Part shown: positions 8,674-36,705 of the stretch, piece after piece | How the letters are laid out: the number at the start of each line of letters is the position of its first letter | How positions within the stretch are numbered: the stretch's first letter is position 1 | From: Parcubacteria group bacterium Gr01-1014_2 | GTDB taxonomy: Bacteria; Patescibacteriota; Minisyncoccia; 2-02-FULL-40-12 | Assembly: GCA_007376425.1 (NCBI GenBank) | Contig: VMGG01000001.1 | Coordinates: forward strand, 1 to 46,066 | Length of the DNA stretch: 46,066 nucleotides | Direction: 5' to 3' | Translations under genes and position numbers: made by a program | Notes under the pieces: model-generated | Databases searched by the model: none | Seen by the model: only the letters and a program-made list of their open reading frames with translations | Told to the model about the DNA's origin: nothing

Positions 8674-8691
8674 AAGTTCAAGAGTTTAAAT

Positions 8692-9162: not shown

Positions 9163-9165
9163 AAA

Positions 9166-10974: not shown

Positions 10975-11046
10975 TAGTATAATTCGTATATTGGTATCGA
11001 TACTAATATACTAATTAATGCTAATTATACCAATTATAAAGAAATT

Positions 11047-12123
11047 ATGTTAAACGAAGAGAAAATTATTATTGATGCCGTTAAAAAAGCCTCGCCCAGC
11101 GTCGTCAGTGTTATTATTTCAAAACATATGCCTAAGGCTAAACGAATGCTGCTTTCGCCTTTTGGCTCTATTGAAATTCCATTACCTCATGCGAAAGAAG
11201 ACCCTCCTTCGCCAAAGGCTTCGGAAGGGCACAGCAAAAAAAATCATGTCCAAATCGGCGGCGGCTCCGGGTTTATCGTCAATTCGAATAACGAGCACAG
11301 TTTAATTCTGACCAATAAGCATGTAGTCCATGACCATGATGCCGAATACACGGTTTTGATAGACGATAAAGAATACGAAGCTCAAGTCATTTCTGTTGAC
11401 CCTTTAAATGACATTGCCATGCTTAAAATAAAAGTCGGCGGACTGCCGATAGTTAAACTTGGCAATTCATCGAAAATCCAAATCGGCCAAACCGTCATTG
11501 CCATTGGCACCGCTCTGGGAATGTTCACTAATACTGTTTCCAAAGGAATTGTCTCGGGACTGGCTCGACGGATTGCCGCTTCGCTTGGCACCGGCGAGGA
11601 AACCGAAGTTTTAAGAGGGGTAATCCAAACCGACGTCGCCATCAACCAGGGAAACTCTGGCGGGCCGCTGATTAATACCGAAGGCGAGGTTATCGGCATC
11701 AATACGGCCATAATTTTCGGCGCCCAAAATATCGGCTTTGCCCTGCCAATTAATTGGGCTAAAAAAGATGTAGACGATATATTAAAATACGGAAAGATTG
11801 AAAGGCCGTATCTGGGACTTCGCTATATGATGCTCAATAAAAAACTAAAAGAGCAATATGAACTTGGCGCCGAAGCCGGGGCCTTAGTCATAAAAGACCA
11901 CTTGCCCAATTCGCAGGCAGTCGTAAAAGGAAGCCCGGCAGATAAAGCCGGCATAAAAGAGAATGATGTAATCGTCGCGGTAAATGAAAAACAGCTGGAC
12001 GAAAAGATGGAGCTAGCTGACTTAATCCAAGAATTCAAAATTGGCGATGAAGTGGAAATGACTCTCTTAAGGGACGGGAAGGAAACAGTAAAGACAAAAG
12101 TGAAGCTGGAAGAGATGAAATAG
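11047..12123 (+). CDS. htrA: HtrA/DegP-family serine protease with a PDZ domain
   Basis: It has a trypsin-fold catalytic set (TNKHVV, DIAMLKI, GNSGGPLIN) and a C-terminal PDZ-like domain (GALVIKD...SPADKAGIKENDVIVAVN). Confidence 0.9.
   Translation: MLNEEKIIIDAVKKASPSVVSVIISKHMPKAKRMLLSPFGSIEIPLPHAKEDPPSPKASEGHSKKNHVQIGGGSGFIVNSNNEHSLILTNKHVVHDHDAEYTVLIDDKEYEAQVISVDPLNDIAMLKIKVGGLPIVKLGNSSKIQIGQTVIAIGTALGMFTNTVSKGIVSGLARRIAASLGTGEETEVLRGVIQTDVAINQGNSGGPLINTEGEVIGINTAIIFGAQNIGFALPINWAKKDVDDILKYGKIERPYLGLRYMMLNKKLKEQYELGAEAGALVIKDHLPNSQAVVKGSPADKAGIKENDVIVAVNEKQLDEKMELADLIQEFKIGDEVEMTLLRDGKETVKTKVKLEEMK
11202..11229 (+). repeat. GC-rich palindromic mini-element, in-frame inside htrA (encodes PPSPKASEG)
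   Basis: The sequence is ccctccttcgccaaaggcttcggaaggg. Its reverse complement carries the core cgaagcc-ttt-ggcgaa shared with the copies at 12211 and 17329. Confidence 0.7.
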
Positions 12124-21412: not shown

Positions 21413-21775
21413 CTACTGGAAGAAGACCCTGGTAACCACTCCGGCAAGGGTCTGAAGAATAAGCCCAACGGCTATGACCACCAACGCGCCCCAGACGCCG
21501 GACCAGATTTGGGTCTTGGCCGCCTTTATTTTAGTATCGTCGCCGCCAGCCCGCATCCAAGCAATACCTCCCCAAACTATGTAAATTAATGCGGCGACCA
21601 CGCCTATTATTAAGATGAATTGAGCTAGTCGCCTGACAATATTTTCAACTTCGGTCAGGGTTGTGCCCGGGACAACAGGCGGATTAACTGTCGGCAACTG
21701 GGCCAGAACCACCACCGGCAATAAAACCAGCATCGCTATCGCTGAAACAGCTGCGTATTTTTTAATTAAATTCAT
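21413..21775 (-). CDS. TrbC/VirB2-like (T4SS-type) pilin-like small membrane protein P5
   Basis: It has a signal peptide (AMLVLLPVVVLAQ) and then two TM helices flanking the loop AWMRAGGDDTKIKAAKTQIWSG. Confidence 0.6.
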   Translation of the reverse strand: MNLIKKYAAVSAIAMLVLLPVVVLAQLPTVNPPVVPGTTLTEVENIVRRLAQFILIIGVVAALIYIVWGGIAWMRAGGDDTKIKAAKTQIWSGVWGALVVIAVGLILQTLAGVVTRVFFQ

Positions 21776-21829
21776 TTGTTTATTTTAATTTTACTTTTAG
21801 CTCCAACACTTATGGTCGGAGCTTTCGAC

Positions 21830-22267
21830 CTAAGGTTTACAGGTTTTTTGTCCTAATCCAAACAATCCGGCTCGGCACTCCAAACCGAACTGGCAATTAG
21901 TATCCTGATTACACAAACTCCCGGGCCCGCCCAGGATCGGATTGCCGGGTATTCCAGAACCGCCAAAGAAACTTCCTGTCACCACTATATTATATATCGT
22001 CAGAATTATCACGCCAACCGCTAAAATTATAAATGCTCCGGTTATCCCGTTCCTGAACCAGCCCTTAGCGCTTTTGGCTTCGGTGTCAGACTTGGCCCAG
22101 AAATACATTATGCCGGAAATCACTATGGTAATAATGGCTAAGATTATTCCGGCGGCAATCAAAAAATTGGCAATGGAATTAAGAATATCTAATAAACCGC
22201 CTTGGGTTAAAGTCGGGCCGGGCGGCAATTGAGGCACGGTATAGTCTGGAACTAGAGCTAGATTCAT
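21830..22267 (-). CDS. Pilin-like small membrane protein P4 with a Cys-rich C-terminal tail
   Basis: It has two TM helices around the loop ISGIMYFWAKSDTEAKSAKGWFRNGI. The tail is CNQDTNCQFGLECRAGLFGLGQKTCKP (4 Cys). Confidence 0.6.
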   Translation of the reverse strand: MNLALVPDYTVPQLPPGPTLTQGGLLDILNSIANFLIAAGIILAIITIVISGIMYFWAKSDTEAKSAKGWFRNGITGAFIILAVGVIILTIYNIVVTGSFFGGSGIPGNPILGGPGSLCNQDTNCQFGLECRAGLFGLGQKTCKP

Positions 22268-22563
22268 TTAATTCTCTATTGGCCCGGGCCAATGCAAAAC
22301 CCCATGCTTTCGCCTTCCGGAATGAAACAAGTAAACCCGCTTGGACAGCTTTGGGGCCCGGTACAATTCTGAAACGACTCCTCGGTGGTCACGCTTGGTC
22401 TTGACCCGCCGAAAAATCCTCCTTCCACGATAATCTTAATTGTCTGAATTATCACGCCAGTGGCCAAAATTATGAACACTCCGATAATCCCGTTCCGAAG
22501 CCAGCCCTTGGCGCTTTTGGCTTCGGTGTCAGACTTGGCCCAGAAATACATTATGCCGGAAAT
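22058..22563 (-). repeat. 63-nt near-identical tract shared by P4 and P3
   Basis: 22058-22120 and 22501-22563 read ccagccctt[a/g]gcgcttttggcttcggtgtcagacttggcccagaaatacattatgccggaaat, with one mismatch, while the flanks are diverged. Confidence 0.85.
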
Positions 22564-22764
22564 AACCAAAGTAATCACTGCCAAAGTAATCCCGGCAGTG
22601 TAAAGAAACTTGGCCGTGCTATCCAAAAGATTAGTAAGCCTTTGATAAGTGACTGGCTCGCCCAGAGGCAACTGAAAAGTTGATTGAGGCTGCTGAACTA
22701 AAAAAGCAGTTAGTAAATTTTTGATTTTTGATTGGTGATTTTTGATTGTTTTTAAAATATACAT
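22276..22764 (-). CDS. Pilin-like small membrane protein P3 with a Cys-rich C-terminal tail
   Basis: It has the same core, ISGIMYFWAKSDTEAKSAKGWLRNGI. The tail is CTGPQSCPSGFTCFIPEGESMGFC (4 Cys). Confidence 0.6.
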   Translation of the reverse strand: MYILKTIKNHQSKIKNLLTAFLVQQPQSTFQLPLGEPVTYQRLTNLLDSTAKFLYTAGITLAVITLVISGIMYFWAKSDTEAKSAKGWLRNGIIGVFIILATGVIIQTIKIIVEGGFFGGSRPSVTTEESFQNCTGPQSCPSGFTCFIPEGESMGFCIGPGQ

Positions 22765-23096
22765 CTTCCAAGTATACTTAGCCGGCAGAAAAATTCTCTG
22801 GTCACCACATTGGCAATCGTATTTATTATCACTCCTACCCCCAAAACAATCAAAGCGCCAAGCAAAGCGTTTTTAAACCAGGCTTGAGCTTTTTTTATTG
22901 CTTCTGGACTACTGCCCGCATTCATATACATTATACCACTTATAACAATTGCAATTATGGCAAATAAAACTCCGATATTAGTCAAAAACGAACCGATAAG
23001 CGCGATAATACTGCCGAGTTCGACCAAAGTAAGGCCACGACCAGCCACTGGCGGCGGCGGAATAACTATTTGAGCGATTTCTAAAAATCTAAACAT
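22752..23096 (-). CDS. Pilin-like small membrane protein P2
   Basis: It has two TM helices around the loop ISGIMYMNAGSSPEAIKKAQAWFKNAL. The C-terminus is CRLSILGRC. Confidence 0.6.
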   Translation of the reverse strand: MFRFLEIAQIVIPPPPVAGRGLTLVELGSIIALIGSFLTNIGVLFAIIAIVISGIMYMNAGSSPEAIKKAQAWFKNALLGALIVLGVGVIINTIANVVTREFFCRLSILGRCIF

Positions 23097-23431
23097 TTTG
23101 CTTGAGCCCCGCTAACAGGGGAACAATTTAAAGGAAGCAATTTATAATTTAAACCCGGCTGTAAAGCATTGGCAATCGTAGCAATAATAACATTGGCCGC
23201 CAGAATCACCAAGATGCCGACCAAAGTCCACCTTAAATTCTTGGTCGCATCAGCGACTTTGGTTTCATTGCCTCTGGCCAAGAAATACTGAATGCCGGCC
23301 CACACCAAAAAAATAACCATTATCGCAAGTACTATCCCAATCAGCCAACAAGCAAAGCCAGTAATTATGCCGGCAATGCGCTGAACCGTAAAATCTTGTA
23401 TCCCCAAAAAATCGTCCATAATCTTAATCAC
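23081..23431 (-). CDS. Pilin-like small membrane protein P1
   Basis: It has two TM helices around the loop AGIQYFLARGNETKVADATKNLRW. The start is either GTG at 23431 or ATG at 23419. It overlaps P2 by 16 nt. Confidence 0.55.
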   Translation of the reverse strand: MIKIMDDFLGIQDFTVQRIAGIITGFACWLIGIVLAIMVIFLVWAGIQYFLARGNETKVADATKNLRWTLVGILVILAANVIIATIANALQPGLNYKLLPLNCSPVSGAQAKCLDF

Positions 23432-23485
23432 AATTATATAAGTTAAAATAAGTAATAACCACTTTAATTATCCACAAATGAAAAA

Positions 23486-23508
23486 GGGAGAACAAATTGC
23501 GTTCTCCC
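23486..23508 (-). terminator. Intrinsic terminator of GC-rich module gene D
   Basis: On the minus strand, GGGAGAAC-GCAATTT-GTTCTCCC is followed by TTTTT. Confidence 0.85.
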
Positions 23509-23534
23509 CTTGTCGAGTTCCCATAACTTCGCGG

Positions 23535-24305
23535 TCAGGGACTCTTGAGTTTGACCGTGGCCGGAATCCGCCATCCCGGCAGAGTTGAGTCTTCGGTTCC
23601 CTGAAGATCAATCTCAAACTCATCGAAAGAGCCTCGGCCGTCTGGCTGAACCAGGAACACCCGAATGTCCGGCCGGTTGACTGTAGCTGTTGCCTTTTGC
23701 GCGAGCACGGCTCGCTTGCCATCAACCTCCACCACAATGACCGAGGTCGTTTCATTTATGACTTTGAAGCGAACTCCGGCCAGCCGCGGCATTGGCTTGG
23801 CAACAGTTACTTCTGCCGGCTCGACAGCAGATTGGTCTGCAGTCGGCGGCTGCGGCCGTTCAGGAACCGTCTGTGGCTGGACTAACGGCTGTTGCGACGC
23901 CTGAACTGACTGATAAACTACAACTGGTTCATACCAGCACTCGCGTTCGTGTTGACCGTAAAGGCCAACACCGCCAGCACCGACTGCGGCACCGCCGACA
24001 ACCGCGCCCGCGTTGCGAGTCCAGATAGCGGCTGAACCACCACCTGCCAAGGCGCCCAAACCCATATCAGCGAACCGATGCCCGATAGACATCGGCCTGC
24101 ACACGAGTTGCTGACCGGGGTAACCGTAAGGCTGCCACTGGCCGGCCAGCGACCAAATCATGGCCTGATTGCCAGCCACGACCCGCGCCGCCTCGTTTCC
24201 GCCAAACGGCGAAAACCCTCCGAAACCGCCGAACCCCCACTGGGCAGAAGCCTCACCTCGCCCAAACAGAACTCCCAAAATTACAATGAAAAGAACTTTC
24301 TTCAT
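23535..24305 (-). CDS. GC-rich module gene D: secreted protein with a glycine-zipper-like segment, a Pro/Gln linker and a C-terminal beta-rich domain
   Basis: The SD GGGAGGTGAGGG precedes the ATG. The signal peptide is MKKVLFIVILGVLFGRGEASA. The Gly-rich stretch is GLGALAGGGSAAIW...GAVVGGAAVGAGGVG. No family is recognised for the C-terminal domain. Confidence 0.7.
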   Translation of the reverse strand: MKKVLFIVILGVLFGRGEASAQWGFGGFGGFSPFGGNEAARVVAGNQAMIWSLAGQWQPYGYPGQQLVCRPMSIGHRFADMGLGALAGGGSAAIWTRNAGAVVGGAAVGAGGVGLYGQHERECWYEPVVVYQSVQASQQPLVQPQTVPERPQPPTADQSAVEPAEVTVAKPMPRLAGVRFKVINETTSVIVVEVDGKRAVLAQKATATVNRPDIRVFLVQPDGRGSFDEFEIDLQGTEDSTLPGWRIPATVKLKSP

Positions 24306-24441
24306 CCCTCACCTCCCTAGAACGAGCGAATGCTCGTTCGGGCTATGGCCCGTGGGCTCGCCCATTAGGGCGATCAATTCACAAATCGAATTGATTTAGC
24401 CAATACCTCTATTCTACTAAATTATTTAAAACTTGTCAAAC

Positions 24442-24483
24442 CACCCTTGAATTATCTTACACGTGTAAGATAATTCAAGGGTG
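24442..24483. promoter_or_regulatory. Perfect 42-nt palindrome (21-nt arms, no spacer) carrying TTGAAT-N17-ATAATT on both strands
   Basis: cacccttgaattatcttacac|gtgtaagataattcaagggtg is its own reverse complement. Confidence 0.6.
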
Positions 24484-24702
24484 ATGGCGTTTGGACTGAA
24501 GTTGAAACGGATGAATAAAAACTTCAAACGTCCAAAAACCACTTTTGAAAACATAATTCTTAGTATGCTGCTGTGCCGCAAAAATCACTCAAAGGATATA
24601 GAATATTTTTTAAAAACCTCTCGCGGCTTTTTGCACCCAAACTTTCTCAAAAAACAGGCGGCGGAATTGGGGGTTGGGGCTCTACTGAAAAAGTTTTTAT
24701 AA
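24481..24702 (+). CDS. Possible small basic protein (73 aa) in the AT-rich spacer, opposite strand to the module
   Basis: The ORF starts inside the palindrome (GTG ATG), has no convincing SD, and its product is Lys/Arg-rich. It may be non-coding. Confidence 0.25.
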   Translation: MMAFGLKLKRMNKNFKRPKTTFENIILSMLLCRKNHSKDIEYFLKTSRGFLHPNFLKKQAAELGVGALLKKFL

Positions 24703-24712
24703 AAAATTAAAA

Positions 24713-24742
24713 GGCCGTTTCCATGTTTCCACGAAAACGGCC
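24713..24742 (-). terminator. Intrinsic terminator after GC-rich module gene C
   Basis: On the minus strand, GGCCGTTT-tcgtggaaacatgg-AAACGGCC is followed by TTTTAATTTTTT. Confidence 0.8.
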
Positions 24743-24769
24743 CTGAAAGAACGATCGCTAACTTTTCGG

Positions 24770-25594
24770 TTAGCCGGGCGGATAGGCTCTGACAATCACC
24801 TCCTGCCCTTTTGGTCCGGAAAACCTCCGAATCCCTCCTTTGATTCCGTACCACTTGGTGATTGGACCGACTGTCCCGTCATCATAGTAGACTTTGGCTT
24901 CAGGAGAACCTTCAAAGTAGTAGTTCCAGCCCGCTGGAACCATGCCTGGTCTAAGAAACTCTTCAGAAACTGTTTCATCTCCGAGGAGCTTGGCTCTGAC
25001 GATTTCTCTTCCCGGCTGCGGCTGAACCTGAACTCCGGGAATCTGAACCTGACTCACTGCCTGCACTGCTCGCCCTGGCATCTGCCGCACCCTCTCTCTT
25101 CCGCCGAAGAAAAAGATGACGGTAATCATGACGATGCCAAGAGTCAGCACTGCCGCAAATCGCGCCGCCCACCGGTTCTGCCACCCAAACATCCACCTAA
25201 GGGTTAGAAAGACACCAAGGGTGGATCCGAGAAGAATCAATACCCCGATCAACTCGGGATCATTCCACGCCGGAACGAACGTCAGGTAAAGCCCGATGAG
25301 CATTTCTCCAAAAACTACAAGGAGAAGCCACTTGTAGATGACACGGGCCCGCGATATCGCCGCAAGCGTCCCTGCTATCAATGGAAATATTAACAGCAGG
25401 ATAAAGAACGCGACGAGCGGCACCATTGCGACTGTCGCGGTCACCCAAGCCATACCAGCGTATGCGACTGCAAGTACCACGAACGGCCAGATCAGAATGG
25501 CAAGAAGCACCAACCTGATCGTCCAGCGGAGTGCCGGCGCCGCGATATTCCAGAGAGCGCGAATGACGCGCAACAACGCTTGAAAAGTAGCCAT
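24770..25594 (-). CDS. GC-rich module gene C: polytopic membrane protein (~6 TM) with a ~90-aa C-terminal soluble domain
   Basis: The SD GGAAAGGAGG precedes GTGATG. The ATG overlaps the stop of B (TGATG). There are hydrophobic helices throughout the first ~175 aa. The C-terminus reads WNYYFEGSPEAKVYYDDGTVGPITKWYGIKGG. Confidence 0.7.
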   Translation of the reverse strand: MATFQALLRVIRALWNIAAPALRWTIRLVLLAILIWPFVVLAVAYAGMAWVTATVAMVPLVAFFILLLIFPLIAGTLAAISRARVIYKWLLLVVFGEMLIGLYLTFVPAWNDPELIGVLILLGSTLGVFLTLRWMFGWQNRWAARFAAVLTLGIVMITVIFFFGGRERVRQMPGRAVQAVSQVQIPGVQVQPQPGREIVRAKLLGDETVSEEFLRPGMVPAGWNYYFEGSPEAKVYYDDGTVGPITKWYGIKGGIRRFSGPKGQEVIVRAYPPG

Positions 25595-26187
25595 CACCGC
25601 GCCTCCTTTCCTTCCAGCTGATCGGCAAGCCGATTGAGTTGTCGAGCCAACTGCTGGTCGGTTTTTCTTGATCCTCGAACCACGGCTCCGCCAGCCTTGG
25701 CAAACCCGATGAAAAGATTGTCGAACCGATCTTGCATCTTCTGCCAGTCGATCGAAACCTTCTCCGGCTTTGCTGGCTCCGCCGCTTTCCTGGCTTCCTC
25801 GATGACCTTAAGAAGTTCTCGCCGAAGCTCGAAATCCAGCTTGACCTTCTCGAGTTCGACTTTCGGATCAGCCGCCTTCTCAATTCGTTTGGCAGCTTCC
25901 GAATAAAATCTATCCATCCAGTCCTGAGCGGCCTTGACTCCTTTCGGTCCCATAACCGCAAAATCACCAACATCGGTCAGTTTCTCTACAACGTCGCCAA
26001 GAGGACCCATCCCTCTGGCTTTAGTTTCAGCCCAGCCCTTGAAAACGCCAAACACTCTCTCGAAGAATTCGCTCTTCAAAGGGCTGTCGTCGGGTATAAT
26101 CGCCCACCATTTCTGAGCAACTTTGCGAAGTTCCGGATCCAACACGCTAAGTAGCGTGTTGATATTAAATAATGCGGTCTTTGCCAT
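25594..26187 (-). CDS. GC-rich module gene B: predicted all-helical cytoplasmic protein
   Basis: The SD AAGGAGG lies 6 nt before the ATG. It overlaps gene A by 23 nt. The second half is rich in charged heptads. No family is recognised. Confidence 0.7.
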   Translation of the reverse strand: MAKTALFNINTLLSVLDPELRKVAQKWWAIIPDDSPLKSEFFERVFGVFKGWAETKARGMGPLGDVVEKLTDVGDFAVMGPKGVKAAQDWMDRFYSEAAKRIEKAADPKVELEKVKLDFELRRELLKVIEEARKAAEPAKPEKVSIDWQKMQDRFDNLFIGFAKAGGAVVRGSRKTDQQLARQLNRLADQLEGKEAR

Positions 26188-27217
26188 CTTGTCCTCCTTG
26201 CGACGAATCGCGTAATGACAAATCAGTCCGGAAAATTAGGGGTGTTCTGCGTTGAATCTTGAGTTCAGGAGACACCCAGGTTTTACCCTTGTCCCTTTCG
26301 ACAACATACGCTTCCCTCATCCTCTCCCAAAGCGAAGGCCTAATAATCCTGACTGGCTTTTCTTCTTTTGTAGGCTTCGGTTGTTCTCTCGCTGGCACGT
26401 CGACAACTGTCTTTTCCGCGTCCAAGTCATCTGGCAGAAAGAAAGTCACCCGCCTTGGGTACTCGAAGTAGGCGAGGCAAACGACGACGATTCCCCAGTT
26501 CTTTATCTGTGAAGGAAAATCGCCGGTGGCGTCACCGAAAACAATCCCTCCCTGTTCAAAGTCCAAGACAGAGATTCCTCCGTCTTCGGGCTTGCCGTCC
26601 TTCCCGATCCTTTGCAGAACAACCTCCAACCTGGAAAAACGCTTGTAGGTATGGAGGACTTTGATCTGGCGCGGCTTAGTGGGCTCGACTTGCTTTAACG
26701 ACTGCTTTGCCTCCTTGAGCTGCTTCTCCGCCTTGACCCGCTCGGTCTTAGCCTTGACGCTAGCAGTCTCCTTCTCATCGCGGGTCGGCTCCTTCTCTTG
26801 AACTATCAACTTTCTCTTTTCAGAAGCAACCCTTGCCCGTTCGAGTCCAGTCCGTTCGCGTCCAAGCGCTTCTTCTTCTGGCTTGGCTGGCTTCGGCAAC
26901 TCCGGCACAGTAATCATCTTCTGCACCGGCAGCCGATCGCCGATGTATACAACCACGAGGTAGTGATGGCCGGGCAAAAGCCCAACCAAAGGGGAAGTGC
27001 CAAAACCATTCTGGATTCTCGCCGGATATCCAGCTGGCGGCTCTTGCCCTTTTTCATAAACCGAAACTCCAACTTCCTTTGGCCTCCCTCCTTCCCACCA
27101 TCCGGTCAACTTAATCCGAAGGGTGGTTGAGTAGGTTTTGTCGGCGGCCAGCTCAAGCGAATCCCAAAAGAATTCGAGAACCGGCTCGCCGCCTTTCTTC
27201 TTCCGGTCTTCAGCCAT
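26165..27217 (-). CDS. GC-rich module gene A: two beta-rich domains joined by a Lys/Glu-rich coiled-coil-like linker
   Basis: The SD GAGGAGG lies 5 nt before the ATG. There is no signal peptide. The linker reads EKRKLIVQEKEPTRDEKETASVKAKTERVKAEKQLKEAKQSLKQ. No family is recognised. Confidence 0.7.
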   Translation of the reverse strand: MAEDRKKKGGEPVLEFFWDSLELAADKTYSTTLRIKLTGWWEGGRPKEVGVSVYEKGQEPPAGYPARIQNGFGTSPLVGLLPGHHYLVVVYIGDRLPVQKMITVPELPKPAKPEEEALGRERTGLERARVASEKRKLIVQEKEPTRDEKETASVKAKTERVKAEKQLKEAKQSLKQVEPTKPRQIKVLHTYKRFSRLEVVLQRIGKDGKPEDGGISVLDFEQGGIVFGDATGDFPSQIKNWGIVVVCLAYFEYPRRVTFFLPDDLDAEKTVVDVPAREQPKPTKEEKPVRIIRPSLWERMREAYVVERDKGKTWVSPELKIQRRTPLIFRTDLSLRDSSQGGQDGKDRII

Positions 27218-27307
27218 ACATCCTCCTCGTGGTTTGAAATTGAATTGTTAAAACTCCGATTTAAGCCAGAATTGGCCTAAACCGAAGCACTTTTTCTGAT
27301 AGCTTTC

Positions 27308-27336
27308 ACTATACATCACTAAATAGTATTTGTCAA
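27308..27336 (-). promoter_or_regulatory. Near-consensus sigma70-type promoter for genes A-B-C
   Basis: The minus strand reads TTGACA (27336-27331), a 17-nt spacer, then TATAGT (27313-27308), about 90 nt upstream of the gene A ATG. Confidence 0.6.
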
Positions 27337-27408
27337 AAGTGCAGTTTTAATATGCCATAGCATCTTAAAACGTAAATTGTATTTTAAAAACAAAAGATTA
27401 ACAAAAAA

Positions 27409-28107
27409 TTAAGGAGTTGGTGGCCCACCTAAATTAAGAATGCTTTTTATAAGAGTGAAAAATCCCTGCCCTATCAAGATAATGGCTAAGCCTACTACCG
27501 CGTACCATAAAGCTTTGTGAGCCGTGGCGACTTTTTCTTTACTGCCGCCTGAAGTCAGATACAAAAGCCCGGCGTAGATTATTATTATCACCGCAATGGG
27601 TATGGCTATCTGAAAAAGAAACTTACCAATGGCTTTGGCTAAATCAATAAGAGACTTGGCGGCAATCGGATTTATAATTTCAAAATCAAAGCCTCCAGGT
27701 TCAGTTCCTCCACCAGGTTCTGTACCGCCGCCAGTCGTAGAGTTGAAAATCGTTCCTGAAGCAATATAGCCACTGGCTGTAGAAATAACGTTATAACAAA
27801 AAGTTGCGTTAGAACCGAGCCCTGAAATGTTAACACTGTGATTAGTTACGGCAGTATTATTAATCGGTGTATAGTTTATGGCCTGGCAGTTGCCTCCTAA
27901 AACAGGCCCCCAATGAACTTGAGAAGTAGCCGGAACATTCGTATTCCAAGTAATCATCACACTTGAATTTGTGGTATTTGCTTTTTCATTACTAATACAA
28001 ACAGGGGCATTGCATTGTTGAGCTTGAGTATCTTCTATTTTAAAAACTAAAAAACCGGCAAAAGAAACGATAATTACGAAAATTGATATTTTTATTTTTC
28101 TACTCAC
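27409..28107 (-). CDS. Signal peptide + FN3-like domain + GGGTEPGG linker + C-terminal pilin-like two-TM module
   Basis: The FN3-like part is SSVMITWNTNVPATSQVHW...NHSVNISGL...FCYNV. The pilin-like part is IAVIIIIYAGLLYLTSGGSKEKVATAHKALWYAVVGLAIILIG. Confidence 0.65.
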   Translation of the reverse strand: MSRKIKISIFVIIVSFAGFLVFKIEDTQAQQCNAPVCISNEKANTTNSSVMITWNTNVPATSQVHWGPVLGGNCQAINYTPINNTAVTNHSVNISGLGSNATFCYNVISTASGYIASGTIFNSTTGGGTEPGGGTEPGGFDFEIINPIAAKSLIDLAKAIGKFLFQIAIPIAVIIIIYAGLLYLTSGGSKEKVATAHKALWYAVVGLAIILIGQGFFTLIKSILNLGGPPTP

Positions 28108-28152
28108 GATATGAATCCTGGGTTAATTTTATCATTGTTTTGAATAAAAGAA

Positions 28153-28197
28153 ATCCCCACCAAAAACATTCAAATCTATCGTGTTTCTGGTGGGGAT
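28153..28197 (-). terminator. Hairpin with a T-rich tail overlapping the stop of the 28176 gene
   Basis: The 10-bp stem atccccacca/tggtggggat has a 25-nt loop. On the minus strand it is followed by ttcttttattc. Confidence 0.45.
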
Positions 28198-28835
28198 GGT
28201 TGAGCATGTCTTTTCCGCCACATCCTCCATAGGTAAAAACCGACAGCGCCTACAGATACAATAACTAACCCCGGTAGCCACCATTGATCGCCGTCCTTCT
28301 CAACACCTCCAGCCTCTGACTTTTTGCAATCCTGAGGACAAGTAGCAGCGTCTTCCCCATAAAAAGAATCGCAGACACTATCCAAATTGCAAGTGGCCAG
28401 ATAGGAGATGTCGTATTCGAGAATCAGGGTATTGGCCGGGTTATAGATTTTCAACTTTGCCCCGGTCGGAGAGTACGGCAGCCGAAGGCCAGTTTCGCCC
28501 TGGTCGAGAATCTTGGAACCGCCAAGAGACTTTCGCAGAGACGGAGAATCTGGATCTGAAAATATCTCAGGCCTCGGATCAAATTTAACCGAGTGCAGAA
28601 TATTATCGTTTTTATCCAGCACTTCGATCCTGAAATCGCCAAGCCTGAAATCACCACTCGGGTCACCTGTTTTCCCTGGCAGGATTATCACTTTTCTGTC
28701 GAGATTTCGGTCAAAAGACAACTGACCGTGATCGTAATACAAGTAAATCTGGTAGACATCGGCTTTAGCCGAATTTGCTCCGAGTAAGACCAATGTTAAA
28801 ACCAATAAAATCATCTTGATTCTGAAAATCGCCAT
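28176..28835 (-). CDS. Type I membrane protein: signal peptide, beta-rich ectodomain, Cys-rich stalk, C-terminal TM
   Basis: The SD AGGAGG lies 7 nt before the ATG at 28835 (Met16 of the track ORF). The Cys-rich stalk is CNLDSVCDSFYGEDAATCPQDC and the TM is LPGLVIVSVGAVGFYLW. Confidence 0.65.
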   Translation of the reverse strand: MAIFRIKMILLVLTLVLLGANSAKADVYQIYLYYDHGQLSFDRNLDRKVIILPGKTGDPSGDFRLGDFRIEVLDKNDNILHSVKFDPRPEIFSDPDSPSLRKSLGGSKILDQGETGLRLPYSPTGAKLKIYNPANTLILEYDISYLATCNLDSVCDSFYGEDAATCPQDCKKSEAGGVEKDGDQWWLPGLVIVSVGAVGFYLWRMWRKRHAQPSPPETR

Positions 28836-28924
28836 GTCAAACCTCCTTAAATTGTAATTGTTCCGTTTATAACTATACATTTTTTATAATAATCAGTCAA
28901 TATCATGATCTTTTTATTTTTCTT

Positions 28925-30745
28925 TCAGGGTATAAATCTCTGAATAATTTGTTTATCAACGGGACCGAATTGATTGTATGGAATATGGTTATCGCGCATT
29001 ATGTCATTCTCGGCATCCCGCTTCCAGCCCGTCTCCGGCCCTTGGTTATTACAGCCATTGAAACACGAAATTAAACCACCGGGACAAGAGCCAAGATTAC
29101 AATTATTCGGCTGTGGTTTTATTATAGGTTTCGGGTAAGGAAGATCATACCAGTATTCATCTGTAAGACCAGCAAAAGCATGGGCTAATTCATGCACTAA
29201 GGTTGTTACCAGCTTATCTCTGGTTATAGTAACTCTTTTTCTGGCAAAATTTGACCAACTCATAAAGGCATCATTTCCACCTAAGCATCTACCAATATAT
29301 ACTGAGACATTTGAAGAAGAACATGCATTAGAATTTATTGTGTCAGACCTCAATAATGAAAACTTAGAACTACTAAAAGGCGGAAACCGTGTGAGTGCTT
29401 CCTGATATTGATTTATAGTAGATACCCAGAAAGAATTCATATCGGAAGCAGTCCAATTTTCACTGCAGATATTGTCTTCTGCATCGTGTAAATTATTGCC
29501 GGCTATAAATACAACTCTAATCGGACCATTACCCGCCACGTTAATACATTGAGATGTTGTCGTTAACGGATACTGAGAACTTCTGGCAGTATAATTATTC
29601 GCTGTAGATACGGCTCGGACATTATAAGTATGCCCCTGCTGAAGATTATTTATAGTGAGCGAGTGATTGCTAACTAAACTATTATTTACGGGCGTTGTCG
29701 CTAGGCCGTAAGTTGCTGACACATATTCAGCCTGAGACGTTGATGGTATATTTGTCGTCCAAGTAATGGTGGCGCTGTTTGGAGTAATATTAGTTAAAGC
29801 AACATTTGAAATTACCATTGTAGCTCCACTGCCTCCGCCGCTACTTCCTCCGCCAGAAGACCCGTCGCCTGCATCTCCGGCGCAGGTCGTGGTGCTGATA
29901 TGGGTATGATCAGTTTCAAATTTAATAAAACCAAAATTGCATTCACTTCTGACGGCGCTTAGCCGATTGAATAATTCCTGTTCCGAGATGCCGACAGCAT
30001 TAAAATCAACTGCTTGAGCACCAGTTGTTCCGCCTGCTCCGCCGTAATGACAGGAATTAATTAAATGCGCGCAGGCCCCGCAAACTGGATTGCCTCGAGT
30101 GTAATTGCATAGAACATTTGAATTATCAGTTTCGTAAGTGTAAACCTGGCTTTGGTCTATAAAATTGTTTAGCTGGGAATTAACGCAGGAAATCAATTGA
30201 TTTAATTCTGGCGCATTGGTTGGACTCGACGGGACGCCGTATTGCGCCGCCAACGCTGACGGATTAGAACATAAAGCACTCGGCGGCGGACCGCCAGGAG
30301 TAATTACTTCGTCTTTGCAAGTAAATCTAAACCAGCTTCCTTTTGCTTTATCCGGACCGAATGACTGGATAAAAGTATTGACTATCATCCACGAAGCCAA
30401 AATTATCACCAAGCCCCAAAAAGTATTTTTAAAAATCGTAGTGCCCATCGCATAAAATTTTTGATTTGCTCCGGCAAGAACAATCATTAGCCCGGCAGCA
30501 ATGAATAAAACTGCAGCCACAGGCGGAACAATGCCCTCTAAAATAAAAAGGATAACATTATCGGCTAAACGAAAAAGGTCGCACCGGGTACACGGAGTAG
30601 GATTTGCAGAAGTTCCACAGGGCACTAACGGCCACCATGAAGGAGCGGCGAAAACGCTGTTAGAATGTAGTAAGTAGAAAGTAGTAAGTAGAAGTAAAAA
30701 GAGTAATAATTTTACGGCTGATTTTTTACGATTTTTTCGTTTCAT
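28925..30745 (-). CDS. Fusion protein: N-terminal pilin-like two-TM module + Cys-rich region + Gly/Ser linker + FN3-like domain + zincin (HExxH) metallopeptidase-like domain
   Basis: The pilin-like part is WPLVPCGTSANPTPCTRCDLFRL...VAAVLFIAAGLMIVLAGANQKFYAMG...GLVIILASWMIV. The linker is SSGGGSSGGGSG and the FN3-like part is ATITWTTNIPSTSQAEY. LVHELAHAFAGLTDEY resembles the M64-type HExxH..DEY motif as I recall it. Confidence 0.65.
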   Translation of the reverse strand: MKRKNRKKSAVKLLLFLLLLTTFYLLHSNSVFAAPSWWPLVPCGTSANPTPCTRCDLFRLADNVILFILEGIVPPVAAVLFIAAGLMIVLAGANQKFYAMGTTIFKNTFWGLVIILASWMIVNTFIQSFGPDKAKGSWFRFTCKDEVITPGGPPPSALCSNPSALAAQYGVPSSPTNAPELNQLISCVNSQLNNFIDQSQVYTYETDNSNVLCNYTRGNPVCGACAHLINSCHYGGAGGTTGAQAVDFNAVGISEQELFNRLSAVRSECNFGFIKFETDHTHISTTTCAGDAGDGSSGGGSSGGGSGATMVISNVALTNITPNSATITWTTNIPSTSQAEYVSATYGLATTPVNNSLVSNHSLTINNLQQGHTYNVRAVSTANNYTARSSQYPLTTTSQCINVAGNGPIRVVFIAGNNLHDAEDNICSENWTASDMNSFWVSTINQYQEALTRFPPFSSSKFSLLRSDTINSNACSSSNVSVYIGRCLGGNDAFMSWSNFARKRVTITRDKLVTTLVHELAHAFAGLTDEYWYDLPYPKPIIKPQPNNCNLGSCPGGLISCFNGCNNQGPETGWKRDAENDIMRDNHIPYNQFGPVDKQIIQRFIP

Positions 30746-30791: not shown

Positions 30792-32093
30792 CTATCTGCG
30801 CTGCATCAGCACCGTGACTTTATCTTCGGCGGCTCTTAAAGCTTCTGGTACGGTTGCTCTTCTAAAAACCACATTCTCAATCATCTCGGCGAAAATTTGC
30901 TCAATGGCTAACGGATCAACTTGATACCAGCTCCGGGCTGATAAAGCTTGAGTTGCAAAAACTCCCAAATCCGGATCAGTTTTTTGGGAATCAATCAAAT
31001 CGCGTCTGGCCGTGGGCCGCAAAGATTTACGAAGATACGGCAAGGCACCATCCCGCGAAGCAAGGTGAACCAAAAACTGCCAAGCGGCTTTCTTATTTTC
31101 CGAAGCAATTGAAACCGCCGGCCCAAAATAATTGGCGTAGTCAACCCGAGTCGAAGCATCTTTGACTTGGGGCATCAAAGCCACATCAAAATTTAATCTG
31201 GGCGCTTTTGATTTAATCACTGGAATCTGATGAGAATAATTGAACATCATGGCCGCCCGTTCAGTCACGAATGCATCAATCGAATAAAACAAATTATTGT
31301 TCCAGGTGTAAATAATTTTAGCCGGGTTGGCGAAATCAGTATAGTATTCCAAAGCCGCCTCCCCGACTGGCTCAAAACCGATTGAGTTGGCAAAGGCCGC
31401 TTCATTTCTTGCCCGATCAACCATTTCCACCCCGCTTTGAATCATCAAAAGACTCAAAATATCGGTTGAACGATTAACGTTTCTGGCTAACCCAATGGCC
31501 GCGCCAGATTTTTCAATATTGCCCCGATTATCAATCTCGGTTAAAATTTTAACCGCTTCATTAAACTCATCCCAAGTTTTCGGAGGTTGACTGATTCCGG
31601 CTGAATTAAATAAATCCTTATTATAATACAAAGCCAAGGTATCGACATAGAGAGGCAGACCATAAATTTGGCCATTATCAATTAAATCATTCTGGACCAC
31701 ATCAACGAAATCTTGCTGAAAGTTAAAAAGTTTAAAGTTTAAGTCTTTGTCGTTTTGATCAAGGGAGGCAATTTTATCTTTATGCTTTGGCAGCCAGCTC
31801 GATTGAATCATAAAAATATCTGGTCCGCGGCCAGAAGCTAAAGCATTTATCAACGCTTTTTCATATTCTTCAAAAGGAAAGGGAACATACCGAATATTTA
31901 TATCGGGATAAATCCGGCGAAAACTCCTGATAGTTTCATCAAAGGCCGAGGGTTCGTCAAAAACACCCCAGAATTCAAGCTCAATTCTTTTAGAACGATT
32001 ATCCCCTATCCCTCCCAAAACAAGAAAAAACAGTAAAATAAAAACTCCGACTATTAAGACGCCGACAATAAGATAAAGTTTATTGGTAGTCAT
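30792..32093 (-). CDS. Extracellular solute-binding protein (ABC-type, family 1-like); no permease genes adjacent
   Basis: It has an N-terminal TM anchor. IELEFWGVFDE...GPDIFMIQSSWLPK...WDEFNEAVKIL is typical of sugar-type SBPs. Confidence 0.75.
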   Translation of the reverse strand: MTTNKLYLIVGVLIVGVFILLFFLVLGGIGDNRSKRIELEFWGVFDEPSAFDETIRSFRRIYPDINIRYVPFPFEEYEKALINALASGRGPDIFMIQSSWLPKHKDKIASLDQNDKDLNFKLFNFQQDFVDVVQNDLIDNGQIYGLPLYVDTLALYYNKDLFNSAGISQPPKTWDEFNEAVKILTEIDNRGNIEKSGAAIGLARNVNRSTDILSLLMIQSGVEMVDRARNEAAFANSIGFEPVGEAALEYYTDFANPAKIIYTWNNNLFYSIDAFVTERAAMMFNYSHQIPVIKSKAPRLNFDVALMPQVKDASTRVDYANYFGPAVSIASENKKAAWQFLVHLASRDGALPYLRKSLRPTARRDLIDSQKTDPDLGVFATQALSARSWYQVDPLAIEQIFAEMIENVVFRRATVPEALRAAEDKVTVLMQRR

Positions 32094-32670: not shown

Positions 32671-35600
32671 TTATACTACAACCACTGAAGCCACTCCATC
32701 ACCAGAGTCCATCTTCATCACTCTCACCCCTTGGGTCGCTCGGCCCAGAACCGATATGCTTTTTAATTCAGTCCTGATAATTTGTCCTTTCTTGGAAATG
32801 ACAATGAGCTCTTTCTGCTCTGGATCAACAATTTGAGCGGAAACTATTTTCCCGGTTTTGGAAGTGACTTTGGCCGCCTTAACTCCTTTGCCGGCCCGCC
32901 TCTGGATTTTAAAAGCTTTAAGGTCAGTTCTTTTGCCATAACCGTTTTCCATTATTACCAAAAGCTGGTGTTTGGCTAAAGTCTGATCTGTAATTACTTC
33001 GGTCCCAATAACATAATCGTTTTTTGAAAGCTTGACTCCGGTGACGCCGGCTGCATTGCGCCCCATCCCCCGCACATCTTTTTCTTTAAAACGGATCGAA
33101 CTGCCTTCATTGGTAACCAAAAGTATCTCGTCGCTGCCCGAAGTAAGTCTGACCCAATTTAGAAAATCGCCCTCATAAAGCTTGATGGCAATCAGGCCGC
33201 TTCGCCTGATATTGACGAACTGATCAACTTCAACTTTTTTAACTACGCCGTCACGAGTGGCCATAAAAAGATATTTTGCTTCTTTCGCTTTGGCTTTCGG
33301 AACTCGAACCACGGCCGTGATTACTTCCTGCGAAGAAATATTCAAAAAATTAACTATTGATTTGCCGCGGCTCACCCTTGAAGATTCTGGCACCTCATAG
33401 CCCTTAGTTTGGAAAACTTTTCCGGAAGCGGTAAAAAATAATAAATTGTCATGGGTATTAGCCAAAAAGAAATGGCTGACAATGTCTTCTTCTTTTGTGG
33501 TCATTCCAATTAAGCCTTTGCCGCCGCGTTTTTGAATCCTCAATTCGGATGAGGACATCCGCTTAATGTAGCCCGAATGGGTCAAAACAAATAAAGCGTC
33601 TTCTTCCGGCACTAATTCTTCTTCGCCGATTTCTTTCAAAGCGCCTCTGACTATTTTGGTTTTTCTTGCATCCCCGTATTTTTGCTTGAGTTCTTCGAAT
33701 TCATCTTTCATTAATTTTAAAATTTTCTTGGGGCTGGCTAACAATTCTTCTAAGTAAACAACAAGCTGTTTTTTCTCCTTGAGTTCGTCTTCAATCTTTT
33801 TTCTTTCCAAACCAGCCAAAGCCTGCAATCGCATCTCCAAAATGGCGGTAGTCTGAAGTTCGGTGAATTTGAATTTTTTGATTAAGTTATTAAAAGCATC
33901 CTCGCGGCTTTCCGATTTTTTAATAGTGGCGATTATTTCGTCAATATGATCAAGGGCTTTTTTCAATCCTTCCAGAATATGGGCCCTGGCTTTGGTTTGA
34001 GCCAAATCAAATTTAGTCCGCCGAGTGATAACATTTTTTCGATGTTCAATAAACTTTTCAAGAATGGTTTTTAAAGAAAGGGTCTGGGGCTGGATGCCGT
34101 CAAGCAAGGCCACCATATTGAAGTGATAAGTTTTTTGGAGATCAGTGTATTTAAAAAGCTGATTCAAAACTTTCCGGGGGGAAGAATCCTGTTTCAGTTC
34201 AATTACAATTCTCAAGCCTTCCCGATCAGACTCGTCGCGCAAATCCCTTATGCCTTCGATTTTTTTGTCTTTGACTAAATCGGCAATCTTAATAATCAAT
34301 TCGGCTTTATTAACTTGATAAGGGATTTCAGTAACGATAATCCGATAAGTCTCTTTCCCCTCGACCTGAGCTCGGGACGAAGGTTTATTCTCTTCGATAT
34401 CAACCTTGGCCCGGCTGACCACCGGACCGCGGCCCGTAGCATAAGCATTTAACAAATCTTCTCGGTTATAAATTATCCCGCCGGTCGGGAAATCAGGGCC
34501 TTGGATAAAATTTACTAATTCTTTATTGTCGGCTTCGGGATTATCAATCAAATGAACTAAACCATCTAAAACTTCGGTAATATTATGAGGCGGGATATTA
34601 GTCGCCATTCCCACGGCAATTCCGAAAGAGCCGTTTAATAAAAGGCTTGGAACGCGTGACGGCAAAACTACTGGTTCTTTTCTCGTGGCATCGTAGTTAT
34701 CGACAAAATCGACGGTCTCTTTTTCAATATCAATCAAGAGCTCTTCAGCGACCGAGGTCATCCTTGCCTCCGAATAACGCATCGCAGCAGCAGAATCTCC
34801 ATCAATCGAGTTATGAACAAAAATTCCTGAAGCCAGAGCAAAGTTATGAGTTTTATCAACTGTTAAATCATAAACATCTCGTTTCTCTTCTAAAAATCTA
34901 ACTTCTAGAACTTTGTGATTATACTTCTGGGCCTGGCTGACAATTTCTTTGAAATCTGAAAAATATCTCAAAACATTATTTATATTTGGGGTCCCGTTAT
35001 TAGCTCTGTTTTTTTCATAAGTCTCTGGGGTTAGTTCATAACCCTGATCTAATAAATTTTTAGCATGCCTCAAAATCTTTGATTTTATCACCTGTTCCTT
35101 GTACCCGGCTTTTTGCCATTTTTTTCTCAGAGACACGGCTGCTTTTTTTGCCAGTCTTTTCATAAAGTCGGGTTGCTCTTTCAATCGTTGCAGATTTCTT
35201 TCTTTTGTCGCTTGGGATATTTTTTTTCTGAATTCCGGGATTTCCCACTGCTTTCTGGCTTTTTCAGAATGAATCTTCTTCATCTCTGGATTGCTCCATA
35301 AAACTTTCGCCATCCGGCTAAAATGGTTTTGGGGGTATTTCGCTCTATACTGAGGGTCTCGCCATAACTTTTTTGCAAATTTTGTTTGCCTTTTTCTATA
35401 CTCTGGATTTTCCCATTGTTTTTTAGATGACTCACTTATATACTCGCGATGCTCGGGATTGGCCCATAACTTCAAAGACCATTCTCTAGTCAAGTCGGTC
35501 ATTTTTTTTCTATAATTTTCATCTTGCCACTTTATCTTCAGCTCCTTTGATTTCAATTTACTCATGAGCTTCTGATAATCTGCTCGTTGCCATGTCTTTT

Positions 35601-36705
35601 TCAATGTTTCACTCGAAACTTTTCTCATAAATTCTTTATACTCCGGATCTGACCATAGTTTTTGTATTATTTTGTGGTGTTTTTTTCTAAACTCCTTGCT
35701 TTTCCAAAGTTTTTCGTTTAATTTTCTTGCTCTTTCGACAAATAAATGCCGGTTTTCATTTATGTACTTTTCTCTTCCTTCGGCCAGTTTTTTAACATAT
35801 TCAGGGTCATTCTTATGCCTTTCTGCAGACATTTGATAATGTAAAACCCAATGATCTTTCCACTGCATTCTTTTAATGTTATCGGGATTATTGTTTAATT
35901 TATTGAAATCCAAGTGGTGGCGAACTTTCCCGTCGCTTTTCTTATAGACTCCGTTTTCAACGTTAAATTTGTCGGCTAATCGATGAGTCCAATCCCAAAT
36001 ATTTTTAAACGGCTGCCAAATCATTCTGTATCCGACGGCATTTTTGTCGTCTTCCTTAGTTGATAGTCTAAAGTAAACCGGCATTAACGAATCACCATTT
36101 TTAAGATTTTGGGCCTCTTTGTAGCTACCGTCTCGCAACGTAAAACGGTGGCTTGGAGTGCATTTTATTTTTTCGCCGTTGTCCAAAATGACTTCAACCA
36201 GTTTTGCATCTTTTTTTGTCAATCTTGGATTTTTAATTTCTGCAATTTCTATAGATTTCGTCTGATGATTAAACGTATAAGTATGATTTTTCTTTCCACT
36301 TTTATATTCTTTAACTAAATCAATAAAAGATAGTTCTCTTCCATCGGTTAATGAAATCTTTGTATCTCCCGTAAAACAGCCCCAGTTGCCTTGACCGTCA
36401 ATCAATGGATAGCGCAACGAAAAATCTTGGGCCATCCGGACCATAGCTTCATACACCGGTGCGTCTCCATGAGGATGGTATTTCCCTAAAATTTCACCCA
36501 CTACACGAGCCGATTTTACAAACTTAACATTGTGCCTCAAGCCCATTTCGTTCATCGCGTAAAGAATTCTCCTCTGAACCGGCTTGAGTCCGTCTCGGAC
36601 ATCGGGCAGAGCGCGCGAAATAATTACGCTCATCGCGTAATCCAAATACGACTCCCTCATCTCTTGGGTTATTTCTCGTTGTTTTATTTTTCCGATTTCA
36701 GACAA
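32671..36705 (-). CDS. gyrA: DNA gyrase subunit A precursor containing one intein
   Basis: It has a TTG start. [44 protein letters not shown] and the C-terminal beta-pinwheel repeats match GyrA. The extein is 821 aa once 523 aa are removed. Confidence 0.95.
34365..34391 (-). repeat. GC-rich near-palindromic insert, in-frame in gyrA (encodes PSSRAQVEG)
   Basis: The coding strand reads ccttcgtcccgagctcaggtcgagggg. The arms ccttcg../..cgaggg pair with 2 mismatches. It lies in a loop before the conserved TEIPYQVNK. Confidence 0.5.
34810..36378 (-). mobile_element. Intein (523 aa, Cys110..Asn632) with an HNH nuclease domain and a basic helical repeat array
   Basis: The junctions are GQGNWG|[10 protein letters not shown] ... 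GIFVHN|SIDGD, and block B is TPSHRF. The HNH motif is [29 protein letters not shown]. There are about 11 units of W-x-x-[PA]-[ED]-[YF]-[RK] spaced 17-22 aa apart. Confidence 0.9.

Follow-up and report, generated by a model that had tools for sequence, protein, structure and literature searches.

A 46,066-bp contig (VMGG01000001.1) from Parcubacteria group bacterium Gr01-1014_2, an ultra-small member of the Patescibacteria from groundwater, encodes seven proteins that share a two-helix hairpin of the VirB2/TrbC pilin type. The complete contig was analysed and is referred to as the window. Five of the proteins (P1–P5) are small, and P3 and P4 end in a 4-Cys knob; the two larger proteins join the hairpin to an FN3 domain (232 aa, g2) or to a Cys/His (CH) domain, an FN3 domain and a putative M64-like zinc metallopeptidase domain (606 aa, g1). 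On balance, we favour the interpretation that the locus encodes the pilin repertoire, comprising major and modular minor pilins, of a surface structure related to the Patescibacteria type IV secretion system (T4SS), into which the hairpins would be assembled. A sequence-only reading of the window had proposed the shared two-transmembrane (TM) module, the 4-Cys tails, the fusions to FN3 and to a peptidase-like domain, and a zincin fold for the latter, and the evidence described below bears out these proposals. The seven genes are all located on the minus strand:

21413..21775, minus strand: P5, canonical small pilin of 120 aa that has a signal peptide and lacks Cys; PF18895 32.3 bits, TrbC 26.5 bits
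21830..22267, minus strand: P4, pilin of 145 aa with a C-terminal 4-Cys knob; PF18895 29.3 bits
22276..22764, minus strand: P3, pilin of 162 aa with a C-terminal 4-Cys knob; PF18895 30.4 bits, TrbC 30.7 bits
22752..23096, minus strand: P2, small pilin of 114 aa with the C-terminal motif FFCxxxxxGxCI; PF18895 27.9 bits
23081..23431, minus strand: P1, small pilin of 116 aa with a GTG start and a C-terminal Cys pair; PF18895 41.0 bits
27409..28107, minus strand: g2, modular pilin of 232 aa; PF18895 29.5 bits
28925..30745, minus strand: g1, modular pilin of 606 aa; PF18895 24.0 bits, E=4e-5, below the cut-off

A VirB2/TrbC-type hairpin in all seven proteins

Six of the seven proteins pass the gathering score of the Pfam family T4SS_pilin (PF18895, 26.6 bits) in hmmscan, with 27.9–41.0 bits, and P3 also passes the cut-off of TrbC (PF04956, 27.9 bits). 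The 606-aa protein is assigned to the family because AlphaFold models its module as a hairpin, with helices at residues 54–92 and 95–129 (pLDDT 84–96), and because its homologues bear PF18895. Weaker NCBIfam matches are to pilin-like conjugal-transfer proteins of Mycoplasma integrative and conjugative elements and of pLS20. The seven modules can be aligned over ~95 residues with two invariant glycines, and their pairwise identity ranges from 15 to 68%. Each has two hydropathy peaks and a loop of 17–18 residues, and the net charge of the loop (K+R minus D+E) is +2 in all seven.

A two-helix hairpin with a basic loop and outside termini is the established topology of VirB2 and is found in the VirB2 pilus structure. 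By analogy with VirB2 and by the positive-inside rule, the loop of the seven proteins would be cytoplasmic and both termini would lie outside the cell. All Cys residues but one fall in the segments predicted to be outside, which is consistent with a display of these segments on the cell surface. In the 606-aa protein and its relatives, Cys43, Cys52 and Cys143 are near-invariant and flank both hairpin helices. The knobs of P3 (Cys134, 140, 146 and 157) and P4 (Cys119, 125, 131 and 143) share the pattern CxGxQxCPxGxxC...GxSxGxC.

Small proteins with two TM helices might also be something other than pilins, for example holin-like or bacteriocin-immunity-like proteins, with Pfam matches that reflect hydrophobic composition. 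The scores are modest (28–41 bits), and several unrelated membrane families are matched weakly as well. However, six independent matches exceed a curated cut-off, and PF18895 and PF04956 agree with each other. When a profile of 78 full-length relatives was compared with the PDB, the sole match was Agrobacterium tumefaciens VirB2, in the correct register though not significant (E=1.2), and relatives of the seven proteins adjoin VirB4 and PrgI genes. We thus regard a non-pilin identity as very improbable. A type IV pilus pilin was rejected as well: inspection found the class III prepilin motif (G/F-x-x-x-E) in none of the seven N-termini, and all seven carry the two-helix hairpin instead of a single N-terminal helix.

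Passenger domains of the 232-aa and 606-aa proteins

From the N-terminus, the 606-aa protein consists of a signal peptide, a Cys-containing segment, the VirB2-like hairpin, the CH domain, a G/S linker, the FN3 domain and the M64-like domain. The 232-aa protein begins with a signal peptide and an FN3 domain (aa 30–125), which are followed by a G/T/E/P linker and a C-terminal VirB2-like hairpin (aa 142–232). The domains of the 606-aa protein are located as follows:

30296..30646, minus strand: hairpin module, aa 34–150 (PF18895; AlphaFold helices)
29873..30283, minus strand: orphan CH domain, aa 155–291 (pLDDT above 90; alignment)
29555..29824, minus strand: FN3 domain, aa 308–397 (Pfam fn3, PF00041, 26.7 bits for a cut-off of 25)
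28928..29554, minus strand: putative M64-like zinc metallopeptidase domain, aa 398–606 (profile, AlphaFold and Foldseek)

The FN3 domain of the 606-aa protein shares 38% identity (E=8e-14) with the domain at the N-terminus of the 232-aa protein; the Pfam match of the latter domain is Pur_ac_phosph_N at 26.4 bits, under the cut-off of 30. When the full-length 606-aa model was searched with Foldseek against the PDB and BFVD, FN3/Ig-like domains dominated among the matches listed (best 50 per search), and the top matches were all FN3.

The C-terminal domain contains the motif HELAHAFAGLTD at residues 518–529, which fits exactly to the M64 signature HEXXHXXXGXXD, in which the two His residues and the Asp bind zinc (PMC12402451). 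An exhaustive search of 1.84 billion representatives returned just 21 relatives of this HELAH domain, and a word-indexed search for homologues that used only the C-terminal domain gave no matches. The complete catalytic motif is kept in all 17 aligned relatives, in which H, E, H, L, D-E-Y, several Cys, R-D and M are invariant. A profile of the 17 relatives matches the M64 structures 3p1v and 4df9 (E=1.5e-8) from before the HEXXH to the C-terminus. The AlphaFold model of the domain, which was predicted with the alignment, has a pLDDT of 90.9 and a pTM of 0.88, and its best 13 Foldseek matches in the PDB are all M64 (E 3e-8 to 8e-7, TM score on the query 0.64–0.68; E=3e-8 and TM 0.68 for 9qdi, 4df9 and 3p1v), followed by matrix metalloproteinases with E above 0.02. 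As a single sequence, the domain scores 24.1 bits against PF09471, just under the cut-off of 26. Because the exact motif is combined with profile and fold matches and a Pfam score just below the cut-off, the domain is predicted to be a divergent zincin of the M64-like type, of which the active-site motif is intact.

The segment behind the hairpin, which had been described from the sequence as a Cys-rich region, does contain the cysteines but is actually a discrete and conserved domain with the invariant motifs CAH, SCHYGG, VDF and HTH plus conserved Cys. Profile searches found 128 relatives, nearly all of which are 280–350 aa long and named 'pilin' by NCBI. An N-terminal pilin hairpin precedes the CH domain in 101 of 119 relatives scanned with local hidden Markov models; the others are fragments or have a different N-terminal TM anchor with a charged cytoplasmic head. 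No Pfam or PDB sequence match to the CH domain was found with single sequences or with profiles of 18 and 78 sequences. The succession SCHYGG..VDF..HTH had raised the suspicion of a LAS/M15 cell-wall peptidase, which was rejected: besides the lack of a Pfam or PDB-profile match, the spacing is H-x13-D whereas H-x(3-6)-D is required, hhalign against an M15C alignment gives a probability of 0.11, and the M15-like tail of P0017, a candidate bridging sequence, is unrelated to the CH domain. That His, Asp and His-x-His of the CH domain form a metal site is no more than a reasonable guess.

Recurrence of hairpin fusions

The display of enzymatic or adhesive domains on a pilin-type anchor had been called an unusual architecture. 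No description of VirB2-type pilins with grafted domains was found in the literature searched, but the architecture is recurrent in the phylum, where more than 100 protein clusters combine the pilin hairpin with the CH domain. Homologues of the N-terminal module open with a signal peptide and WWPLVPCG..C.RCD, followed by the hairpin. The passengers found on homologous hairpins are FN3 repeats, He_PIG Ig domains, CH domains, M64-like domains and a second kind of HExxH domain; an SLT lytic transglycosylase stands behind the hairpin in 10 of 47 matches, and a peptidase_S9/abhydrolase passenger is placed N-terminally. An N-terminal pilin hairpin is present in 11 of 20 relatives of the M64-like domain. 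Among the 187 proteins retrieved, hairpin, CH and M64-like domains occur together only in the 606-aa protein of the window. On a Moranbacteria contig (L021, 1..4322), a pilin plus M64-like gene adjoins a pilin plus CH gene.

Orthologues of the seven genes in related genomes

The nearest relatives of the window are metagenome-assembled genomes of the Patescibacteria group, Candidatus Yanofskybacteria, Kerfeldbacteria, Moranbacteria and Paceibacterota, and their loci are numbered with the prefix L. A phylogeny of the two-TM module, for which the sequence-only reading had expected datable duplications, was built by neighbour joining from 41 hairpin modules. All seven window genes have 1:1 orthologues in L009, the closest relative, and in L006, and the g1, g2, P1 and P5 types are also common to the more distant L001 and L002. 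The 1:1 orthologues and the four types in L001 and L002 indicate that the duplications are old and that each paralogue has been retained. Each paralogue is 60–90% identical to its orthologues in two other genomes and keeps a paralogue-specific C-terminal motif: P1 shares 78, 77 and 46% identity with its orthologues in L009, L006 and L001, respectively, P2 shares 75% with L009 and 70% with L006, and P5 shares 90% with L009. A recent duplication within the window as the origin of P3 and P4 was rejected, since L006 and L009 both have separate orthologues of P3 and P4.

The passengers are less stable than the hairpins. In L009 the 4-Cys knob is located on the P1 and P4 orthologues, and the P3 orthologues in L009 and L006 are without a knob, which indicates that passengers are shuffled among hairpins. 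The L009 orthologue of P4 (202 aa) carries a signal peptide, and its Cys-rich tail is longer and has the same GLGQKTCKP end. The g2 orthologues in L009, L006, L001 and L002 keep the hairpin with differing N-terminal passengers.

This movement of passengers and Cys knobs between paralogues of close relatives, together with the low identity of the modules (15–68%), which resembles that of published Patescibacteria arrays (average 25%; PMC12102498), would suit a variation system. In such a system, interchangeable major pilins are used alternately against host or phage recognition or for different hosts, as has been proposed for VirB2 of Bartonella and Anaplasma and suggested for Patescibacteria. 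We consider this unlikely for the present locus, because 1:1 orthologues at 60–90% identity with specific C-terminal motifs point to fixed, distinct roles and not to rapid turnover, and because overlapping or abutting genes on the same strand suggest co-expression. The seven-gene set with its 1:1 orthologues argues for a heteromeric structure over simple antigenic variation.

Gene order and association with secretion genes

In other lineages the pilin-CH gene is located 1–4 kb downstream of a VirB4-like ATPase gene (L004, L016 and L023; P-loop_TraG 92–96 bits, AAA_10), which ties the fusion family to T4SS clusters. The T4SS cluster of L004, at 1759..11056 of a 633-kb contig (GCA_964402565.1), contains in this order PrgI (VirB3-like), a TraC-like gene, the VirB4-like ATPase, three unknown genes, DsbA, a 248-aa Cys-rich modular pilin and the pilin-CH gene. 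In the lineage of the window, the pilin genes sit apart from T4SS clusters. The shared gene order runs from S1, Lactamase_B_3, GyrA, a methyltransferase, SBP_bac_1 and the pilin-CH gene, through sometimes a ~230-aa membrane protein, a 'passenger + pilin' gene and three to five small pilins, to HSP20, PrsW and ValRS. The gene upstream of g1 in the window is:

30792..32093, minus strand: membrane-anchored solute-binding protein of 433 aa (Pfam SBP_bac_1, 114 bits)

An SBP_bac_1 gene is located directly upstream of the pilin-CH gene in 11 of the 18 distinct loci that have upstream sequence, namely the window, L001, L002, L006, L008–L011, L014, L015 and L018, and the called stop and start of the two genes overlap by 4 nt in several of them (L006, L009 and L011). 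No ABC permease or ATPase was found near the SBP_bac_1 gene in the window.

Assembly into a surface structure or anchoring in the membrane

In the interpretation that we favour, P1–P5 are VirB2/TrbC-type hairpin pilins that would insert into the membrane so that the two termini face outwards and the basic loop lies in the cytoplasm, and the 232-aa and 606-aa proteins, P3 and P4 are modular hairpins. Because both hairpin termini are predicted to face out, the passengers would be outside the cell whether they are N-terminal, as in the 232-aa protein, or C-terminal, as in the 606-aa protein, P3 and P4. The signal peptides, the abundance of cysteines and the DsbA gene nearby in L004 are in keeping with an outside location. 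The pilin genes abut or overlap in a single orientation, which suggests co-expression. A VirB4/VirB3/VirB6-type machine that is encoded elsewhere in the genome would extract the hairpins from the membrane and assemble them. A fibre or stalk would be built from the small pilins, and the modular pilins would be minor subunits that are located at the tip, act as initiators or are sparsely distributed along the side, where they may present adhesive and hydrolytic modules to the envelope of the host cell.

Several observations weigh against this interpretation. In agreement with the sequence-only reading, neither a T4SS ATPase nor a type IV pilus ATPase was found in the window; this was determined by a Pfam scan of ORFs (open reading frames) of at least 110 aa, except short ORFs that are nested in or overlap larger genes (GyrA and ValRS were identified by sequence and synteny). 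VirB4, VirB3, VirB6 and VirD4 were found neither on the 46-kb contig nor within 10 kb of the syntenic loci in close relatives. The coupling to the SBP_bac_1 gene gives a hint of a function for which a T4SS may be unnecessary. The hairpin of the 606-aa protein falls just under the PF18895 cut-off (24.0 versus 26.6 bits). A hydrophobic leader is evident from hydropathy in P5, the 232-aa and the 606-aa proteins, but P1–P4 have no recognisable signal peptide by the same measure; the P1 orthologues of L001 and L002 and the P4 orthologue of L009 do have N-terminal signal peptides. A passenger of 480 aa would be difficult to accommodate in a helical VirB2 lattice if its subunit were neither rare nor terminal. 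We know of no pilus that has been seen for this pilin family.

Some of these observations would suit a simpler role, in which the hairpin is a membrane anchor only and the seven proteins remain in the cytoplasmic membrane as adhesins or enzymes displayed at the surface or as small membrane proteins, with neither a filament nor a functional link to a T4SS in this lineage. Besides the lack of T4SS genes in the window and near the syntenic loci and the steric awkwardness of large passengers in a pilus, this role is favoured by the location of the locus among housekeeping genes (GyrA and ValRS) and its coupling to a membrane-anchored SBP, and by CH domains that stand behind a different N-terminal TM anchor with a charged cytoplasmic head. 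However, five small pilins without large passengers, kept as distinct orthologous types, are hard to explain as anchors. Members of the family are located next to VirB4 and PrgI within T4SS clusters elsewhere, and the pilin array of S. epibionticum is essential within its T4SS cluster (PMC10633639). We therefore treat anchoring alone as the main rival of the pilin model, possible although doubtful.

Comparison with known systems

Arrays of VirB2-like genes are a known feature of the phylum: 441 arrays of 2–11 genes, with an average identity of 25%, have been described in 383 Patescibacteria assemblies (PMC12102498, Quinonero-Coronel et al. 2025), and an essential VirB2-like array is located inside the T4SS cluster of Ca. 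Southlakia epibionticum ML1, a member of the Saccharibacteria (PMC10633639; PMC12857230). The Patescibacteria T4SS is the first that was shown to be essential to its owner and the only monoderm system with VirB2-like pilins (PMC11665869, PMC12857230), and a pilus has not yet been shown for any of these systems (PMC12857230). A pilin gene is near virB4 in only 1,135 of 1,948 assemblies, and most VirB2-bearing genomes have no recognisable VirB1 (PMC12102498). Since published arrays often lie far from virB4, the array and the missing ATPase of the window are ordinary.

The present locus shares with these arrays the families PF18895/PF04956, the tandem order, the low identity of paralogues, a monoderm owner without a known pilus and the frequent location away from virB4. 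It differs in three respects. The published accounts treat the pilins as small, whereas large extracytoplasmic passengers, predicted enzymes among them, are borne by two members here and by many relatives; the locus is conserved gene for gene in relatives; and it is coupled to an SBP gene and not to virB4. The array itself is thus a known feature. The modular VirB2-type pilins are new, among them the unique protein that combines hairpin, CH, FN3 and M64-like domains, and so are the CH domain as an orphan, the fixed set of seven genes and the SBP coupling.

VirB2 of the A. tumefaciens T-pilus, TrbC of RP4 and TraA of F share with the seven proteins the two-helix hairpin, the short basic loop and the predicted outside termini. 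In contrast to the proteins described here, these classical pilins are ~70–120 aa long, bear no passengers and belong to diderm systems with VirB5, VirB7, VirB9 and VirB10. VirB2 and TrbC undergo head-to-tail cyclisation, whereas Cys43, Cys52 and Cys143 of the 606-aa protein could clamp the ends of the hairpin by a disulfide.

The modular type IV pilins of the monoderm Streptococcus sanguinis have a similar design, a minor pilin with a polymerisation module and an adhesive graft, which is a vWA module in PilB and a lectin module in PilC (PMC8179133, PMC9934059). They differ in their single N-terminal helix, prepilin-peptidase signal and PilB-type ATPase, so that the likeness is an analogy and not a membership. 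The cell-wall hydrolases of Gram-positive T4SSs (VirB1-like PrgK, TraG of pIP501 and CwlT) are also exo-enzymes with an N-terminal membrane anchor. Their anchor is a single TM helix and not a VirB2-type hairpin, and the 606-aa protein carries M64-like and CH domains in place of their SLT, CHAP or NlpC-P60 domains.

The M64-like domain shares the motif HEXXHXXXGXXD, the modelled fold (TM 0.68) and the C-terminal elements with M64 peptidases such as the IgA protease of Thomasclavelia ramosa, BF3526 and BACOVA_00663. At 210 aa, it is without the N-terminal beta domains of the solved M64 enzymes and represents a rare subfamily that is usually fused to a hairpin. A groundwater epibiont has no IgA for an M64-type enzyme to cut.

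Other features of the window

The two groups of pilin genes are separated by two elements, neither of which belongs to the pilin family:

28176..28880, minus strand: membrane protein of 234 aa, non-pilin, with a signal peptide, an extracytoplasmic domain, a C-terminal TM helix and a basic tail
23483..27340, minus strand: GC-rich four-gene cassette of ~3.9 kb, with 50–64% GC versus ~41% in the flanks

The 234-aa protein contains the motif CxxDxxCxxxxGED..C..DC and matches no Pfam or PHROG family. In L001 (28% identity, E=5e-20) and L002 (29%, E=2e-21), a homologue occupies the same position between the genes of the two large pilins, and the gene is absent from the closer relatives L006 and L009.

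The cassette is located between the 232-aa gene and P1 and encodes proteins of 350, 197, 275 (polytopic membrane protein) and 256 aa (secreted, Gly-rich), none of which matches Pfam or PHROG families. It contains near-consensus promoters at 27336–27308 and 24439–24411 and strong terminators at 24744–24711 and 23511–23483; the GTG start of P1 is ~50 nt from a terminator. The AT-rich gap of the cassette contains a perfect 42-nt palindrome (21+21, no spacer; 24442..24483), next to which a weak remnant (24505..24678, plus strand; 34% identity over 67 aa) corresponds to a 187-aa gene that is intact in L006. A search for the origin of the cassette in PHROGs, viral contigs and metagenome contigs found nothing beyond the organism of L006. 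The possibilities of an assembly chimera and of a recent insertion were considered; the chimera was rejected, since L006/L012 and L009 have the same cassette at the same site with raised GC. Because it is present in these loci and absent from L001 and L002, the cassette is regarded as an inherited lineage-specific insertion, and it is not counted as part of the pilin system.

The remainder of the contig has the gene content of a Patescibacteria (candidate phyla radiation) chromosome, with ValRS, ArgRS, IF3, SmpB with tmRNA, TsaD and FtsH, an intein-bearing GyrA and ten tRNA/tmRNA genes. GyrA (32671..36705, minus strand) is 1344 aa long versus 808–811 aa in relatives. Its insert of ~490 aa (~34880..36340) has the intein-like borders Cys...His-Asn|Ser and a body of Lys-rich W..PE(Y/F)(R/K)K repeats with no obvious homing-endonuclease domain, and it is absent from GyrA of L009, L001 and L002. 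Three very large surface-type ORFs occupy the start of the contig (46..8229, plus strand): the first (1069 aa) is Gly/Thr/Ser-rich, has no Pfam match and is open to the contig start, the second (601 aa) contains DUF2341 and LamG, and the third (1022 aa) contains a beta-helix and PG_binding_1. GC is raised (up to 0.50) across 5–8 kb of the contig. A large serine recombinase of 543 aa (Resolvase, Recombinase and Zn ribbon; 43412..45280) adjoins a tRNA-Thr/Phe/Gly cluster, and the syntenic L009 locus has a similar recombinase at its edge. A free-standing gene beside ArgRS, in a stretch of low GC (33–36%), encodes a 23S rRNA intervening-sequence protein (PF05635, 119 bits; 8692..9162, minus strand).

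Implications for the epibiont and the pilin family

Beyond the favoured interpretation, we tentatively propose that the VirB2 pilin may serve as a general display scaffold. A heteromeric fibre or stalk of fixed small pilins would be capped or decorated by modular VirB2 pilins that bear adhesins and envelope-attacking enzymes (M64-like, SLT and CH domains), the near-universal pilin-CH protein would act as a tip or initiator like VirB5 in diderms, and the coupled orphan SBP would link the structure to the capture of host nutrients.

If VirB2 hairpins routinely carry enzymes and adhesins, concrete activities between epibiont and host are suggested, such as proteolysis by an M64-type zincin, cleavage of peptidoglycan by SLT fusions and binding by FN3 domains and Cys knobs. 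It would also provide a possible reason for the apparent lack of VirB1 and VirB5 homologues, and the pilin-SLT fusions may be relevant to the VirB1 gap. The CH domain, an orphan domain that is widespread on these hairpins, is now defined for characterisation.

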